From NCBI GenBank assembly GCA_951406725.2, contig OX597815.1:47244001-47308000 (forward strand): a DNA stretch of 64,000 bases. The letters run 5' to 3'. Shown piece after piece: positions 446-62,119 of the stretch; the stretch's first letter is position 1, and each line of letters opens with the position of its first letter. The DNA is from Octopus vulgaris. Lineage: Eukaryota. The notes beneath the pieces are model-generated. The model was not told where the DNA came from. It saw nothing but the letters and a program-made list of their open reading frames with translations, and searched no databases. The translations under genes were made by a program, and so were the position numbers.

Positions 446-474
446 TGTGGCTGTGTGGTAAGTAGCTTACTTAC
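446..474 (+). mobile_element. 5' piece of a CORE-type SINE (family B), interrupted by the 475-2541 insertion
   Basis: GTGGCTGTGTGGTAAGTAGCTT matches the heads of intact copies at 10200 and 61708; the SINE resumes at 2542. Confidence 0.8.
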
Positions 475-2541
475 TCAGAATGCAACACTAGTTGGTCTGG
501 ACTGTTACAGTGAGCAGATGTGAGTTTCGGCTCCGCGAATAGAAAAAAAGAACAAAAAGAAAAATTGTCAATTATGGCTCGCTATAGTGAGCAAAATACT
601 GGGTTCTCATCACCGTAACGGTGAATTGAGAATTATTTTTGAAAATTCTTCTTGTAAATTCTAGTGGGCGTATCTCGCCAGAAAAATAAGAATAAGCCAC
701 TTGGATTACCTTTTGAATTACCTTTTTGGAGTATTATAGAAAGGATTCCCTGTCTGTGCTATTTGTGAGGTGTTTCTTTTACTTTTCCCTTCTATTTTTT
801 CTTTCTTTCTAAGTTTTGGTTCATTCTTTTCATTACTTAAATTTCAGTTTCCTCCCCTCCTCTTTTATTATGTTTTATTTTTATTTGGCTTAATGTTTTG
901 GCAGACTGTCTTTTGAACTACTTTTGAACTGTTTTTTGACATGGCAGAGAAGGAACTTAAAAAGAAAAACTCTGTCTTAGAGTGGGAAATTAACCCGCCT
1001 AAGCAATGGTTAAAAGATATGGAGGAGAAGACGATGGTACTTAGAACGTATTCTAAAGTTCTTAATTCCATCACCGTCTGCCCAAAACAAGTCATAAATA
1101 ATGAACTTAAAGAACATTTGTCCACTGTAAAATATATATCCCGTGGTGTCAAACATGCAACCGTATGGTTGCTGTTTGACAACAGGGAAAAGGCTCGCCA
1201 GTTTGCGAGTCAGCCTTTAGAAGGCAAGGAAATTCTGTTTCTCCCGTCATACTGTGGAAGAAAATTAATACGAGGCTGAGTATGTGGGCTCCCCCCCGGG
1301 CACCGAAGCGGATTGGATTGAAGATACCATACGACGGGGACTGGGGGATGGCGGGCCCAGGCTCTTAAATGTAAGAGTATTGCCGGCGGTCGATTAGGAA
1401 GGGTCAAAAGCGATTTTGACCCTGTGGACCCCATCGGCCGCAACAGAACTGGTTTTTCCAGACTTCTTGAAAATGGCTGGCTGAAGGTATCCGGTGATAC
1501 TTGAGGGACATCCCCCAAATTGTCACTCGTGCCTGCAGCCAGGCCACATTAAAAGGAACTGCCCTCAGGACCATGGTAAGGTCCTGGAACAGTCACTAGA
1601 TTCCACCTCCCCTACCCGGTCAAAGGGAGAGGTGGATGTGGTCGAGGAGGCTTCAGCCTCCTCAACTCAAAAAGGATTAAAAAGGAAGAAGGCGGGCAAC
1701 AATAGTTGCCCGCCGAAGGAACCTAAGGCTTCGGAAGGCGGGGGAGAGTCTCCGGACAAAGCGGAAGAGCTCCACTCTCCCGAAGCCAGGAAGAAAAGAA
1801 AAAAAAAGAAAGAAGAACGGGTTATCTCAGCGGGGAGATGATGAGCCGACTGCATGCCCCGAAGTTGTGCCACCCACGGTGGAAGAAACCACCCCCACCC
1901 TTAAAGATGATCAATTAATTATCTTTTCTACAAGGGCGGGGAGGTGGAAAAGATTGTAGAAGAACATAAAGAAACAGTAGATATGCCCTTCACACGGGAT
2001 CCCGAATGGCCTCTGCAGATAGCTGTGGAGGTCATAAGGTTTCCCTTGTGGGAAAGGCTTAAAGTATTTGGGGAGGAGTGTCGCATATGGCCGGGTGGCC
2101 CTTACACGACTTACATGTCCTACATGAGTGAGGCATGGGAAATGGCGGGACACAGGAACTCAAGCGGCATTGAAGATAATGATGAATATATCGATGGATA
2201 TATCGAAGAGTAGGAGGTGAAAGATCCTCGTTCCTGGGTTTGAAACCTCACTTATTGGATTATTTTGTAGTGGTTTATAACCTCAATTGTGTGCTTTAAG
2301 AAATAAAAAAAAGAAAACATGTGAAGTAAGAGGTTTTAGTGCCTTCTCCTTGTAAGAGGTTCGAAACCTCATATTGATTTTAAAAAAAGAAAAAAAAGAA
2401 AATATGTTTTCGAAAAACATCCAATCGGCGGGTGTTGAATTTCGTCTCTCATTTATTCATTATATTTCATTTTCATTCATTAATGTATTTGTCCAGCCCG
2501 CAAAGCTCTTTGTACTGTCTATATGACAAATTTATGAAATA
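475..2541 (+). mobile_element. Non-autonomous L1/Tx1-like retrotransposon carrying only ORF1 (HAL1-like)
   Basis: About 465 bp 5'UTR, disrupted ORF1 with CCHC knuckle, about 330 bp 3'UTR ending in AATAAA, flanked by duplicated AAGTAGCTT(N)TAC at 460-474 and 2542-2554; no endonuclease or RT sequence. Confidence 0.75.
941..2213 (+). pseudogene. ORF1p/gag-like nucleic-acid-binding protein with frameshifts and stops
   Basis: ORFs 941-1279, 1494-1841 and 1944-2213 join across frameshifts; FPDFLKMAG*RYPVILEGHPPN-CHSCLQPGHIKRNC-P gives a CX2CX4HX4C knuckle at 1521-1562 in typical L1/Tx1 ORF1 context, followed by a Lys-rich region and an acidic tail. Confidence 0.75.
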
Positions 2542-2682
2542 AAGTAGCTTGTACCAACCACATGGTTCCGGGTTCAGTCCCACTGCGTGGCACCTTGGGC
2601 AAGTGTCTTCTACTATAGCCTCGGGCCGACCAAAGCCTTGTGAGTGGATTTGGTTGACGGAAACTGAAAGAAGCCTGTCATA

Positions 2683-2751
<69 letters not shown>

Positions 2752-2890
2752 GCGTGTGTGTGTTTGTGTGTCTGTGTTTGTCCCCCTAGCATTGCTTGAC
2801 AACCGATGCTGGTGTGTTTATGTCCCCGTTACTTAGCGGTTCGGCAAAAAGAGACCGATAGAATAAATACTGGGCTTACAAAAGAATAAG
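2542..2890 (+). mobile_element. Remainder of the family B SINE with internal (TA)n
   Basis: CATGGTTCCGGGTTCAGTCCCACTGCGTGGCACCTTGGGCAAGTG (B box plus CORE-like CCTTGGGCAAGT), near-identical to 10200 and 61708. Confidence 0.9.
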
Positions 2891-2924
2891 TATATATATC
2901 TACATATATATACATACATACATG

Positions 2925-10199: not shown

Positions 10200-10567
10200 G
10201 GCGCAGTAGTGGCTGTATGGTAAGTAGCTTGTTTACCAGCCACATGGTTCCGGGTTCAGTCCCACTGCGTGGCACCTTGGGCAAGTGTATTCTACTATAG
10301 CCTCGGGCCGACCAAAGCCTTGTGAGTGGATTTGGTAGACGGAAACTGAAAGAAGCCCGTCGTATATATGTGTATATATATATGCGTGTGTGTATTTGTG
10401 TGTGTGTATTTGTCCCCCTAGCATTGCTTAGCGGTTCGGCAAAAGAGACCGATAGAATAAGTACTGGGCTTACAAAGGAATAAGTCCCGGGGTCGAGTTG
10501 CTCGATTAAAGGCGGTGCTCCAGCATGGCCCCAGTCAAATGACTGAAACAAGTAAAAGAGTAAAAGA
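10200..10567 (+). mobile_element. Family B CORE-type SINE, near full length
   Basis: GGCGCAG head through GACTGAAACAAGTAAAAGAG tail. Confidence 0.9.
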
Positions 10568-30669: not shown

Positions 30670-31763
30670 TAACAAAAGAGGGGGGGTATTTCCACTCAGG
30701 AAAAAAATATAGGAAAATGTGTTTGCACCTAAATTTCAAAAACTCGTAAATGCTTAAAATACATTTATTTACATATATACCAAACTAGTTTCAACAATGT
30801 GTTTTGTTTATCAAAGGTTATGAATTAGAAAAACATGTTTAAAAGTTTCAATGTTGACAAATTAAATGTTTCAATGTTGATAAATTAACATGTTCAAAAC
30901 AGATAAATTTAGCATTGTGAATTAGGAGGACAGGTGTAAGTTTGAATGTTCATAGCAGTCAATAATGTTAAAATTGTATAGCAATATGTTTGAATGTACA
31001 AAGATCATTGATTTTAGTGGTGGTCGACAAGTCATACCGAAAAAAAGGGTGAAATGAAAATAGTAAAAAAAGAAATTTGATTTACAGTTTCTCTGATCCT
31101 CTTCTGGTAGACGCTTTTGCTTGTAATGGTATCTTTTGGGATCAGATGTATTTATAATTTTTCTGCGAGAGGATCTAATTCATTACAATACTGATAACGT
31201 CTTTTCCGTGGTCAAGCTTATCGTTCTGCTTGGTTGGTTTCCCTGTGGAGACGGTTATAAGTCGTTCAAGTTGCTTGGTTCTCTTAAAGGGTCATTTCGT
31301 TGTATTTGTTGAAGTTCGGCTTTGATTAGTCTGGAGTTAGGTGACGTCAGCAACTGGTGTTTGTATGGTATTTTGGAGTTGTGGTTTCGGAACCCTGGTG
31401 GAAGATTGTTACTAAAGGTTTTTTTTAATTTTTTGTTGTTTCTGGTGTTTTTTTGTGTTGAGATTGAGTCTTTTTCTATTCTTTTTTCTTCTTTCTAAAC
31501 GATATTCAGCTGTGGTTTATATTTTTTAATCAGTATGTTTCCCTTATTTACACGGAACTGGGTTGAAGTGTTTCTAGTGCATTGATAGAGAGGGAGGATT
31601 TGGTATTTATGGTTTATGTCTACAGGGCATTGGTCTAGGTGCTTGCTTACGGGAATTTTCCTCGTGATGAGTCCCTGATTTGTTGCCTGTGCACCGTAAG
31701 TCTATCCCTCAAAGTTAAGCTAGTTTGACCAATGTAGTCACCACCACAACTTCCACATTTGAG

Positions 31764-31768
<5 letters not shown>
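30670..31768 (-). mobile_element. 5'-truncated PLE: GIY-YIG end, 3' region and degenerate hammerhead (30778-30820)
   Basis: FVLKCGSCGGDYIGQTSLTLRDRLTVHRQQIRD...ILIKKYKPQLN at about 31500-31768; ACC-T-TTGATA-AACAA..TTGTT-GAAACTAGT remnant. Confidence 0.8.
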
Positions 31769-31828
<60 letters not shown>

Positions 31829-31846
31829 GTATCTGCACGCTGTACC

Positions 31847-32263
31847 TTGAAAAACAGCCGCAAGAGAGGTAAGCCCTGTTCACTGTGCAACAACATGAGT
31901 CAAGTGAATTTCATCAGGAATCATAACAGAAATGTTATGATTTATACTGAAGGTGGGACATGTAGAGATTCTCATTTGGTGTATGTGGCAGAATGCACGA
32001 AACACAACTTGATTTATGTTGGTTGTACAACTGAACAGTTAAACAAAAGGTTTAATGGGCACAGATATGACGTCAGACACAACAGCAGTAGTTCGACAGA
32101 ACTTGTCGAACATTTTGCTTCAAACGGCTGCAATTTTGAAAAAGACTTCAAAGTGCTTATTCTCAGAAAATATTCTGAATCTGTTTCACTTTCACTTCTC
32201 AAAATGCATGATATTGAATTAAAAGACAGGAGCATATCATCAAATTTATATAAAACTGATTGA
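31847..32263 (+). pseudogene. PLE GIY-YIG endonuclease fragment
   Basis: CSLC...TCRDSHLVYVAECTKHNLIYVGCTTEQLNKRFNGH...ELVEHF fits the LVY/YVG motif, catalytic R and downstream H residues. Confidence 0.85.
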
Positions 32264-34358: not shown

Positions 34359-35289
34359 GTAGCACTCTCTTGTAGCTATGATCACATTGTTGGAGCTAAC
34401 TCATGCTCTTTGCTGCCGATTCTCATTACAGTCAAGATGTCAACTTCATTCAAACTTTCGTTGCTTACTGCGGTAATACTCTTGCTCCAGTCTTAAAATT
34501 TATTTTTGTGTTATTCTGATTATCTCTTTGGTCATTCTGATTACATCCATGGTGCTAACTCTCGTTATAGTCTCTATATTATGCTATCTTCTTGTTTCTT
34601 ACTGTCTTTGCATTTTATGCTAACTCTGATCACCCAGTTGCGGGCATCCTCGCTTGCTTTAGCATTACTAACACTGATCTCTCTATAACTCGCAGCGATT
34701 CATTTTAATACCCATTTGTCGTTGTTGCTGCGGTCTTATTTATTTATTTTTTATTTCTTTATTGAATTATAGTACTAATACGTTCTTTAAATTTTGAAGT
34801 TACTTCCTTTACTGGGAATCCCAAATTGAAGGGAAAACTTGAGTATGAAAAAATCTATAAGTCCGTATATATCTCTACTAAACACTGAAGGTACTGGATA
34901 ACTTTTTGTGCATATTTCCATGTATGTATGTATGTATGTATGTATGTATGTATGTATGTATAAATGTATGTGTATTTTTCAATGTGTAAAAATAACACGG
35001 AAAAAATAAATAGTTACCAGGGTAACAAATATTCACATAAGTGCGAAGGATGTTACAGCCTACATATAAAGGTAGAAATGCCAGGGTTTAGAGAAATATT
35101 TTTGATTAACATAGTTAAATTAAGAAATGGAGTTAAACGCAGGTGTTATTCAAATCTGTATACTTCCGACATATGTTTCGAAGAAAACATTGGTATTATT
35201 CCCTAGGGAATAAACTGATGTAAAACAATGTAAGGGAAAAAAGAGAAATAAAACACATCAATAAGCTATTTTTACCGAATGTGATTACC

Positions 35290-35522
35290 TATTTCTTTAT
35301 TACCCACAAGGGGCTGAACATAGAGGGGACAAACATGGACAGACATAGGTATTAAGTCGATTATATCGACCCCAGTGCTTAACTGGTACTTAATTTATCG
35401 ACCCCGAAAGGATGAAAGGCAAAGTCGACCTCGGCGGAATTTGAACTCACAACGTAACGGCAGACGAAATACCGCTAAGCATTTCGCCCGACGTGCTAAC
35501 GATTCTGCTAGCTCGCCGCCTT
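35290..35522 (-). mobile_element. Full-length family C SINE, 3' half of the tRNA-SINE chimera
   Basis: Minus: AAGGCGGCGAGCTAGCAG...AGCCCCTTGTGGGTAATAAAGAAATA. Confidence 0.9.
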
Positions 35523-35538
35523 AAAAAATACCCCTTTG

Positions 35539-35611
35539 AGGTTCCAGCGAGTTTCGAACTCACGACCTTCTGCGTGTTAAGCAGATGTGATAACCACTAC
35601 ACCATGGAACC
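35539..35611 (-). tRNA. tRNA-Val: tRNA-Val, anticodon AAC, probably a retrocopy
   Basis: GGTTCCATGGTGTAGTGGTTATCACATCTGCTT-AAC-ACGCAGAAGGTCGTGAGTTCGAAACTCGCTGGAACC-T folds as a full 73-nt cloverleaf; T6 tract follows about 10 nt downstream. Confidence 0.9.
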
Positions 35612-40404: not shown

Positions 40405-41164
40405 AGAGGCGATGACTAAATTCTGCAAAAATGAAAATAACACTGACATCTCATTTTAACAGATATATTTACCAAATCACATCAAAATATCTTGAAATAC
40501 TAGAGAGTAAATTTAGTCAATAAAATCACCATTGGCTTCAACTACGCCCTCCAGACGACTTCGGAATCTGCTGAAACTCGTCTGGACTGTCTCTTTGCTT
40601 AAGTTCGCAAATACTGCCAAAATCCTGGCCTTCCGTTCATCTTTGGTGTTACAAGGAATTATTTTGGTCTCTCGTTTAACTGCGCCCCACCCATAGTAAT
40701 CAGCGGGGTTTCAGTCTGGGGAGTAAGTGGCCAGATTTTGAGTGTGATGTGGTCACATAAATTATTTCACAGCCATGACTGGGTTCCCCTGCTTGTGTGG
40801 CATGGTGCAGAATCCTGTTGCCAGACATAGGGTCTTCCAGATCATGTGGGAAGATGAATCGAGATATTACATCGCCATCACTATTGATCATTCATAGCAC
40901 CATGAATTTAGTTGGCTGGATGTTTGATTTTTATCACTCTCGATACATCTTAGATTGCAATGTCCTCAGATTGACACACAAACACTCTGAAATATTCGTA
41001 TCGGAGCTTCCGGCACGAATGACAGGCAGTTCAGCAGCTCGTTTCCAAATTCAGGCAGATTGAATTGCGTCATGGTGCTGTTTAAATTACAGAAGGTGCC
41101 CAACAGACCCTACTATACTGTATATTCTAAAAAATCAAAAACAAACAAATCGCATGCACGAAAT

Positions 41165-41168
<4 letters not shown>
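40405..41168 (-). mobile_element. Internally deleted DD37D Tc1/mariner copy
   Basis: Minus translation INSDGDVISRFIFPHDL and QQDSAPCHTSR; same family as 46028-46845. Confidence 0.75.
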
Positions 41169-41198
<30 letters not shown>

Positions 41199-46027: not shown

Positions 46028-46845
46028 AGAGCTTGCGATGGGTAAATTGTTGCCATTTTATATCTTTAATTTCGCGCATACGCATTGTTTGTTTTTCCTT
46101 TTGTCAACTACACAGTATAGTAGAGTCAGTTAGACACCGTCTTTGAGAAAAATAGCACTATGGCGCAATTCACTTTGCCAGAAATTTGGAATCGACATGC
46201 TGTACTGCTTGGCATTCGCGCCAGAAGCTCCAGTACGAACATTTCAGAGTGTTTGGGTGTCAATCTGAGGACATGTATTGAAAGTGATAAAAATCAAACA
46301 TTCAGTCAACATCGTGGTGTTTGGAATGATCACTATTGATGGCGACTTTGTGCCTCCATTCATCTTTCCACACGGCCTCACACTCAGAACGGAGGCCTAC
46401 ATCAAGTGCCTGGAGGTGGTAGTGCTGCCCTTGGTCAAGAGGGTGACTGCTGGAAGACCTTATGTTGGCAACAGGACTCTGCACCATGCCATACAAGCAG
46501 GAGAACCCAGTCATAACTGTCAGACAACTTATGCGACCTCATCACCCCTAACTCCCCAGACTGCAACCCTCTTGATTATTATGCGTGTGGCGCAGTTGCA
46601 GAAATAATAAAAAAACTCCTTGTAACACTAAAGATGACCCGAAGGCACCGACTGTTGCACAATTCACCAACTTAAACAAGGAGACCTACCAGAAGAGTTG
46701 CAAGTCGTCTGTAGGCCGTGGTTCAAGCCAATGGAATTTTTATTGAATAAATTTACTCTTTAATATTTCAAGATATTTTTTATGTAATTTTGGTAAATTT
46801 ATCTGTTAAAATGAGATGTCGGTGCTATTTTCTTTTTTGCGTATA
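46028..46845 (+). mobile_element. Internally deleted DD37D Tc1/mariner copy
   Basis: VVFGMITIDGDFVPPFIFPHG..YIKCLEVVVLP..QQDSAPCHTSRRTQ..SPDCNPLDYY. Confidence 0.8.
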
Positions 46846-53083: not shown

Positions 53084-53111
<28 letters not shown>

Positions 53112-53114
<3 letters not shown>

Positions 53115-53342
53115 TTCTTTACTACCCACACGGGGCTAAACACAGAGAGGACAACAATAACAGACAAACAGATTAAGTCGATTATATCGACCCCAGTACG
53201 TAGCTGGTACTTATTTAATCGACCCCGAAAGGATGAAAGGCAAAGTCGACCTCGGCGGAATTTGAACTCAGAACGTAGCGGCAGACGAAATACCGCGAAG
53301 CATTTCGCCCAGCGCGCTAACGTTTCTGCCAGCTCGCCGCCT
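53112..53342 (-). mobile_element. Full-length family C SINE inserted in (TACA)n
   Basis: Closely matches 35290-35522 including the tail. Confidence 0.9.
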
Positions 53343-60745: not shown

Positions 60746-61707
60746 TTGCCTGTATATATGTATATATATATATATACAGAGACACGAACTCGCATCAACG
60801 TTCAAATGGGGACTTTTCCATGGTTGTATCGGTGAGACGGAATTCCTTTACGCAGATTTTCTCTGGCTTGAAGTCTTTCCTCTCGGTAAAAATGAACTCA
60901 TCTGTTTGCAAGTAAATAGACGAGTTGCTGACCATCGAATGAGGAAAAGTCCGGACATTGTTATACGTAATGTGGAGAAAATACGGTACCGCTTGAATGA
61001 GTCAGTCGTAGACAAAGGTCACACAGTAATTCAAGACACGTCACGAAGCTCGCACATGATCATGTCTATGAATGCTGACAATGTTTTTTACGGTCCTCGA
61101 AGACACGTGAAAACGTGAAAAAATACAAATGCACTCACACAACCACATCAATGTACACGGATACCTCGTATTTGCATATAGATACACACACACATATACA
61201 CACACATACGTACACACACACACACACTCATACAAGCAACAAACTTCTTCAATTTTGTCTATTTTGTTCACAAAGTATTGGTCGATCGCGGTTTTTATAT
61301 AGAATAGGAGCCGACAAAGTTTACGCTGAAACCGAGCACACCATCACGTGGTTTCGCAGCAAACTTCTGAAGCAAATCTTGAAACAGAATCGGCAAATTA
61401 AGAAATTTAAGTCACTACATAGGACAACCTATTCATGTTAGAAGCCTTGTTACTGGCCAATTAGTAGCCAGATTTCACGTTACAGATTCTTCTAGAGACT
61501 TCTGAAATATTTCCTTACAAGATTTGTAGAGTGCGTGATAACCTGCGGACGTGCTACACACATCCTCTTACCGTTTATAATAATCGTTCAACGACTGTCT
61601 GCTCAGCTTGGGTATGTCGATTTAGTTGGCCGCAACCTACTAGACTGTTTTCTCCTGTCTTGACAAACCAGCACAGAGCTTTTGCAATAAACTATGTATG
61701 AACAATA

Positions 61708-62119
61708 GGCGCAGGAGTGGCTGTGTGGTAAGTAGCTTGCTAACCAACCACATGGTTCCGGGTTCAGTCCCACTGCATGGCACCTTGGGCAAGTGTCTTC
61801 TGCTATAGCCCCGGGCCGACCAATGCCTTGTGAGTGGATTTGGTAGACGGAAACTGAAAGAAGCCCGTCGTATATATGTATATATATATGAGTGTATGTG
61901 TTTGTGTGTCTGTGTTTGTCCCCCTAGCATTGCTTGACAGCCGATGCTGGTGTGTTTACGTCCCCGTCACTTAGCAGTTCGGCAAAAGAGACCGATAGAA
62001 TAAGTGCTGGGCTTACAAAGAATAAGTCCCGGGGTCGATTTGCTCGACTAAAGGCGGTGCTCCAGCATGGCCGCAGTCAAATGACTGAAACAAGTAAAAG
62101 AGTAAAGAGTAAAGAGTAA
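61708..62119 (+). mobile_element. Full-length family B CORE-type SINE
   Basis: Complete head, CORE-like segment, internal TA/TG tract and (AAGAGT)n tail. Confidence 0.92.

Follow-up and report, generated by a model that had tools for sequence, protein, structure and literature searches.

Non-autonomous LINEs that keep ORF1 are described from three clades, L1, CR1 and Jockey (PMC5786205). Mammalian HAL1 is a LINE derivative coding for ORF1p only (PMC5753468, PMC5786205), and Ag-Sponge (CR1 clade) and HeT-A (Jockey clade), both from insect hosts, likewise have ORF1 and lack ORF2, with no SINE target reported for them in the same source (PMC5786205). In Dictyostelium, TRE5-A.2 keeps ORF1, has a largely deleted ORF2, is moved in trans by TRE5-A.1 and is tied to Pol III genes (PMC3159450).

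Other related systems concern the choice of insertion site. Tx1 families are often target-specific, with other transposons among their targets, and Tx1L in Tx1D, Keno in U2, Tx1-Mar and SINEU-3 each use a fixed site of another repeat (PMC4494074). The target-specific Tx1 families are autonomous two-ORF elements, while SINEU-3 is a non-autonomous, non-coding SINE for which a 16-bp duplication is expected and described; the Tx1 targets named in that survey are DNA transposons, LTR elements, snRNA/5S genes, satellites and microsatellites, with no SINE among them (PMC4494074). For Octopus vulgaris, 80 L1-Tx1 families have been reported, 13 of them recently active (PMC13282606). The parts of the literature surveyed (including PMC4758252 and PMC8869645) yielded nothing on an ORF1-only or SINE-targeting cephalopod LINE, nor on Tx1 elements that target a SINE; since novelty was judged from the literature, Repbase, Dfam or the O. 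vulgaris repeat library may already contain the family as an L1-Tx1 entry.

In this work, a decayed insert in a 64-kb stretch of O. vulgaris DNA (the window) was examined. With about even confidence, it is read as a member of an ORF1-only, Tx1-type non-autonomous retroposon family, likely SINE-targeting via the borrowed ORF2 protein of a partner. A preliminary description had called the element HAL1-like, and the analogy holds in that the window copy has ORF1 without ORF2, but the type of ORF1 and the tail differ. HAL1 derives from mammalian L1, has a Type II, Transposase_22 ORF1 and carries a poly(A) tail ahead of the duplication, whereas the octopus element has a predicted RRM-RRM-CCHC layout without Transposase_22, lacks poly(A) and apparently uses a fixed target. 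HeT-A belongs to another clade and is site-restricted at telomeres, and TRE5-A.2 lands ~50 bp upstream of tRNA genes via an ORF1-TFIIIB contact, whereas the octopus element lies inside a SINE head.

The insert and its host SINE

The insert (475-2541; 2,067 bp) sits inside a split octopus SINE (Table 1), and its coordinates and features match those first proposed for it, namely ~2.07 kb with a 5' UTR, a decayed ORF and a 3' UTR between duplicated pieces of a SINE. Window positions 447-474 align with the SINE copy at 61717-61744 and positions 2542-2891 with 61730-62027, and the two SINE halves share 15 bp of SINE sequence, an overlap that is the target-site duplication. The duplicated SINE segment of the preliminary description is retained, but its length of 15 bp and the element start at 475 are revised, probably to 16 bp and to 476, because other copies carry the SINE's letter at 475. 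A degenerate 15-mer of the site, with at most one mismatch, matched the window three times (460, 10222 and 61730) against 0.08 matches expected, and none of 100 shuffles reached three; the right duplication copy goes unmatched because of its deletion. Empty-site SINE copies are present in the same window, and among the joints listed, empty-site joints leading from 466-473 to 2552-2559 were found in all four contig runs.

Table 1. Positions of the insert's parts and of the interrupted SINE within the window
Feature	Position (strand)	Remarks
Host SINE 5' head, A-box-like part	446..474 (+)	Aligns to intact copies at 61705 and 10197
Left target-site duplication copy	460..475 (+)	15 bp, or 16 counting 475
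5' UTR	476..940 (+)	T-rich, many T4+ runs; contig cover in all 4 runs
ORF1 piece 1	941..1291 (+)	First predicted RRM; stop at 1277-1279, frameshift near 1291
ORF1 piece 2	1292..1838 (+)	Second predicted RRM, CCHC knuckle at ~1521-1562, basic low-complexity region
ORF1 C-terminal part	1839..2213 (+)	~95-aa domain, acidic tail, frameshift near 1923
3' UTR	2214..2541 (+)	Three 17-nt repeats, A-rich runs, terminal AATAAA
Right target-site duplication copy	2542..2554 (+)	2 nt deleted
Remaining host SINE: B-box-like part, TA run, body	2555..2891 (+)

Four SINE heads of the host family occur in the window, and intact copies lie at 61717-62027 (start 61705), ~10197 and ~33721. The remainder of the host SINE is 95% identical to 10222-10383 over 162 nt, and at this locus the SINE is without the first ~12 nt and the last ~80 nt of the intact copies, whose tail aligns only as far as 2891. 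Its A- and B-box-like motifs suggest that the SINE is tRNA-derived; ARAGORN called no tRNA in the SINE head, none of 27 weak Rfam matches (almost all on TA runs) reached the gathering score, and the folding of two heads was not significant (z +0.80 and -0.40). Immediately 5' of the host SINE, positions 136-445 hold another SINE-like repeat with no second copy in the window, within which contig depth is high at 350-427.

No second copy of the insert was found in the 64-kb window. Its first and last 500 nt share just low-complexity matches of 10-31 nt, with no sign of LTRs, and no terminal inverted repeat was found in the insert. LTR/gag and DNA-transposon readings were rejected for want of an LTR or a terminal inverted repeat.

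Several other features were observed in the window. An open frame piece at 31763-32263 (+) carries a GIY-YIG-like motif and is presumed to be a possible Penelope-like remnant. Positions 40425-41174 and 46059-46840 form an inverted pair of diverged repeats (77%) with a transposase-like frame at 46269-46607 (+), which we take to be possibly Tc1/mariner. ARAGORN called a tRNA-Val(AAC) at 35538-35611 (-), adjoining a repeat family (35286-35522 and 53108-53342); the call may represent a SINE head.

The ORF1 protein and its relatives

The insert contains a single broken ORF (941-2213; 424 codons). Besides the breaks given in Table 1, it has stops at 1395-1397 and 1482-1484, both within the second predicted RRM, and a third putative frameshift in the A-rich run at 1787-1838. 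The preliminary account of a decayed ORF of about 420 codons with a CX2CX4HX4C knuckle, a basic region and an acidic tail agrees with this, and the knuckle, in the piece 1485-1838, was matched by Pfam zf-CCHC with E 2.8e-4 and a score of 21.3 bits, slightly over the threshold of 20.8. None of the remaining five ORF pieces had a Pfam family match, and Transposase_22 was found in none of the six.

For the N-terminal piece, one relative was detected among 58 candidates, the O. sinensis protein of LOC115225585 (XP_029652367.1; hereafter P0001), with 65% identity. ORF1 piece 1 matched the family HMM with E 7e-30, and tblastn of P0001 on ORF1 piece 2 gave 58% over 171 aa. A search with P0001 returned 47 proteins at E<=0.001, P0001 itself counted; six of ten relatives looked up bore cephalopod names (O. 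sinensis, O. vulgaris, O. bimaculoides and Argonauta) and the other four were nameless. In the 24 of the 47 relatives that were scanned, the zinc-knuckle family was found in 10, and endonuclease, RT and Transposase_22 in none. When P0001 was compared with proteins of similar length, only P0001 itself was recovered among 684 candidates.

An AlphaFold model of P0001 (29-row alignment; mean pLDDT 82) contains two alpha/beta RRM-type domains ahead of the knuckle. All Foldseek matches listed for this model are RRM proteins (SFPQ/NONO, hnRNP A1 and HuR), with a best E of 2.7e-5 and a low whole-chain TM of 0.2-0.3. Neighbours in the Atlas include zf-CCHC and ZCCHC3-like clusters (0.89-0.93) as well as RRM clusters, the best clusters being unnamed arthropod and mollusc proteins. 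On the predicted fold, the ORF product is a Type I LINE ORF1, with two predicted RRMs followed by a zinc knuckle. The knuckle assigned earlier was retained; the two predicted RRM domains had been overlooked. The Type I layout of RRM plus CCHC is defined in PMC5203782, where it is called no more than consistent with Tx1.

The same ORF1-only anatomy might come from a clade other than Tx1 (of CR1, L2, I or Jockey type, as in Ag-Sponge and HeT-A), which appears very unlikely. Type I ORF1 is not specific to one clade and is also found in LINE clades other than Tx1, and the arthropod and mollusc proteins of the best Atlas clusters are in line with such an origin. Against it, ZCCHC3-like clusters are among the Atlas matches, and the insert shows a 15-16-bp duplication and an AATAAA end without a terminal microsatellite, a combination that fits L1/Tx1 better than CR1/L2. 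CR1 families, too, are active in O. vulgaris (PMC13282606), which speaks for the non-Tx1 origin.

The C-terminal part behaved differently in these searches. The piece 1926-2210 matched none of eight candidates and scored <0.9 in the Atlas, and no relative of the last ~95 residues was detected by candidate, Atlas or HMM search. A C-terminal homology seen by eye was rejected, as an HMM built from the C-termini of five relatives gave no match at E<10. P0001 has 281 aa and ends at about the position of the A-rich run 1787-1838 of the window ORF.

P0001 and the 46 further ORF1-like proteins share the RRM-RRM-knuckle layout of the element, the difference being that their annotation is that of uncharacterised host genes. 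LOC115225585 has three RefSeq protein accessions, and the first knuckle Cys of P0001 is replaced by Phe; the gene is considered a decayed or co-opted ORF1 copy. In another O. sinensis protein (P0015, XP_029639579.1), ~45 ORF1-family residues and translated 5' UTR-like sequence are joined to an integrase core, and this is likely a chimeric gene model spanning two mobile elements.

A multicopy family with a decayed member

Logan contigs from 4 of 24 listed runs (X1, X3, X4 and X13) were mapped at 80% likeness. Of the 30 bins of the insert, contigs covered all 30 in X1, X3 and X4, and 29 in X13. The summed depth over the insert in X1 was 4.7e3-2e5, compared with 26-105 for single contigs listed, depth being distinct from copy number, and the long contig pieces listed mostly carry many other letters, which implies that they come from other copies. 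The best run held 0.43 of the sampled words, corresponding to ~97% identity if there were a single template. The element is clearly a multicopy family, and together with the cephalopod-named protein relatives, the contigs in all four runs support the earlier proposal of a family in cephalopods whose gene is of LINE ORF1 type. A pattern for the insert junction gave no matches in metagenome contigs.

Most of the ORF breaks belong to the window copy. In X1, X3 and X4, 99-100% of the depth lacks the stops at 1279 and 1396, and 58-91% lacks the stop at 1484; the frameshift at 1291 is missing from 64-96% and that at 1923 from 42-82%. Five of the six breaks are therefore lacking in a large share of the depth or in all of it, and the sixth lies in the skipped A-run. 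Among 40 differences listed (of 203), 31 are private to the window copy, at least 85% of the depth in X1, X3 and X4 reading otherwise; within these 40, the private ORF differences comprise 3 silent changes, 11 replacements and 2 stops, as expected under neutral decay. The window copy decayed after insertion, and the ORF of its source family was probably more open.

Absence of ORF2 in the window copy

In the window copy, ORF2 is absent, the ORF stop being followed only by a closed 328 nt with stops in all six frames. This stretch carries its 17-nt repeats at 2237, 2272 and 2358 and ends in AATAAA at 2538-2543, reaching 2 nt into the duplication; no poly(A) tail was found at the 3' end of the insert, where AATAAA abuts the target directly. 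A second AATAAA with an A-run at 2302 resembles the terminal one and is a possible alternative 3' end. Folding was not significant for the 3' UTR (z -1.39), the last 146 nt (z -1.04) or the 5' end (z -0.80).

Other copies join the ORF stop to the same UTR. Such joins were found in X1 record 8 (2128-2344; 24 other letters and 14 gaps), X13 record 14 (2204-2370) and X4 record 32 (2121-2293), the last turning unlike the insert past 2293. In addition, positions 2233/2235 were called in 25-27 X1 contigs, as far as 108 letters in from the contig ends. The preliminary description had named a one-off internal deletion as the case that would overturn it, and these joins in diverged copies from three of the four runs count against that case. 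Taken together, the multicopy cover, the mostly private breaks and the stop-to-UTR joins in diverged copies argue that the insert is not a one-off.

Continuity from the ORF stop into the UTR was seen in other copies to ~2370, and none of the contigs listed spans 2370-2440; the repeat at 2377-2407 was skipped in contig mapping, and X13 depth is zero at 2378-2455. The claim that ORF2 is lacking accordingly stands for this copy, and for other copies as far as ~2370, with the stretch 2370-2440 unbridged family-wide among the listed contigs. Because no contig listed bridges it, ORF2 could lie there in other copies, and the family could then be mainly an autonomous LINE, possibly SINE-targeting, with an internal deletion confined to the window copy or to a minor subfamily.

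This is judged unlikely. In X1 and X3, depth at 1988-2221, the peak of the insert, is ~3.5-fold that of the adjacent UTR (1.4-fold in X4), and it rises ~2-fold again in the last 130 nt, a profile that an autonomous LINE would explain, as it would the divergence of X4 record 32. The excess at 1988-2221 would also fit ORF1 relatives with a different downstream part, and the peak may mark sister families sharing the C-terminal domain. On the other hand, in several diverged copies the stop is followed by 160 nt or more of AT-rich sequence with many further stops, which is long for an ORF1-ORF2 spacer, and the 3' end has only ~1.5-2 times the ORF1 depth, which is mild given 4 kb of extra sequence and counts slightly against an autonomous LINE. 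Among 32 contig pieces listed, those with >40 unlike letters numbered five on the 5' side and five on the 3' side and did not discriminate. A search of metagenome contigs for loci of the relative P0051, in which a downstream ORF2 was sought, gave 201 pattern matches and none confirmed.

A shared 5' junction at the SINE site

The SINE's letter at 475 accounts for 5965 of 6180 in depth in X1 (12 contigs), 9727 of 10288 in X3 (16 contigs), 589 of 605 in X4 (11 contigs) and 54 of 54 in X13 (one contig), that is, 95-100% of the depth (not of copies) in all four runs. At position 515, inside the element, depth is 5636, 4224, 270 and 54 in X1, X3, X4 and X13, respectively, and the depth at 475 is equal or greater. 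In the local alignments, a mismatch at 475 was counted only if the contig also matched leftward into the SINE head. X13 record 9 spans 448-885, from the SINE head into the element, and has ~10 additional letters where the two meet; the whole SINE head is carried by only one contig among those listed. As a control, one of 76,149 X13 contigs has the SINE letter at 475 and gives all the depth there, which indicates that empty SINEs are not leaking into the count. Of the window's intact SINEs, when aligned to the insert edge, one stops aligning at 474 and another is gapped at 475.

Given the dominance of the SINE letter at 475, most 5'-complete copies seem to occupy the same SINE site, and the 5' boundary at 475/476 is common to other copies, in agreement with the boundary first proposed. 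Judging from the reads, the SINE is apparently the usual target and not, as had been assumed, a random place of insertion. With four SINE heads per 64 kb, random landing on that SINE position would have a frequency of ~1 in 16,000. A signal at the 3' junction, consisting of insertions behind 2551 (13+14, 16+22, 9+7 and 2+1 contigs), was set aside, as these may be SINE contigs beginning there. In the same field, Kojima's criterion for target preference is that >20% of flanks lie in one repeat (PMC4494074).

Two further explanations of the shared junction were weighed. The element may have entered a SINE once, after which SINE and cargo were amplified together by the SINE's partner or by DNA duplication. 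Such hitchhiking, which had to be excluded for SINEU-3 by Kojima (PMC4494074), accounts equally well for the shared 5' junction; it nevertheless appears improbable, as the 23 runs of at least four T in the insert would stop Pol III, the insert puts 2 kb between the A- and B-box-like motifs, and the host SINE is truncated at both ends. Moreover, depth climbs from 5' to 3' (Spearman 0.55-0.72), a gradient that 5' truncation predicts and that disfavours pure DNA duplication.

Alternatively, an ORF1-only family without site preference may have captured a SINE head as its 5' end, the SINE downstream being partly due to chance. The 5' junction alone is well supported, and Tx1 families with snRNA-derived 5' ends have been reported (PMC4758252), both of which are compatible with a capture. 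However, the SINE resumes exactly 15-16 bp back of the left break, as is typical of target duplications, and a chance landing on that very nucleotide has the rarity calculated above; a captured head is thus considered quite improbable.

Proposed mechanism

The SINE-targeting reading can be extended, tentatively and with somewhat less than even confidence, to an octopus ORF1-only Tx1-derived family that is site-specific in the head of this abundant SINE via a new SINE-targeting Tx1 endonuclease, making it a two-tier parasite. We infer the Tx1/L1 clade, the mobilisation in trans and the partner; the Tx1 clade is unproven, since the element has no RT to place on a tree and no partner was seen.

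In this mechanism, the element would be transcribed by Pol II from an internal promoter in its 5' UTR, and its ORF1 protein, with two predicted RRMs and the knuckle, would coat its own RNA. The ORF2 protein of the partner would recognise the 3' end and nick the SINE at 460-475. Target-primed reverse transcription with a staggered second cut, the established mechanism of LINEs, would then leave the 15-16-bp duplication that is observed here. As AATAAA overlaps the target, transcripts may run into target sequence, which might help priming at the same site, and such read-through could also account for the missing poly(A); both ideas are speculative. The window copy subsequently decayed neutrally, as its private differences indicate.

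Implications

If the two-tier scheme is true, SINE copies would serve as safe landing sites for the element, each being silenced by the splitting of its Pol III promoter, and the element would retain an ORF1 of its own with which to compete for the ORF2 of its partner. If SINE targeting is true, a SINE would be added to the targets known for Tx1, and the octopus would be expected to have an APE endonuclease that acts at a defined 16-bp site. A mollusc case of Tx1 type would, with TRE5-A.2 also known, represent another independent origin of ORF1-keeping non-autonomous LINEs, and would allow a test of why ORF1 persists although ORF2 can be borrowed. Moreover, some of the octopus gene models now annotated as uncharacterised would be remnants of ORF1.
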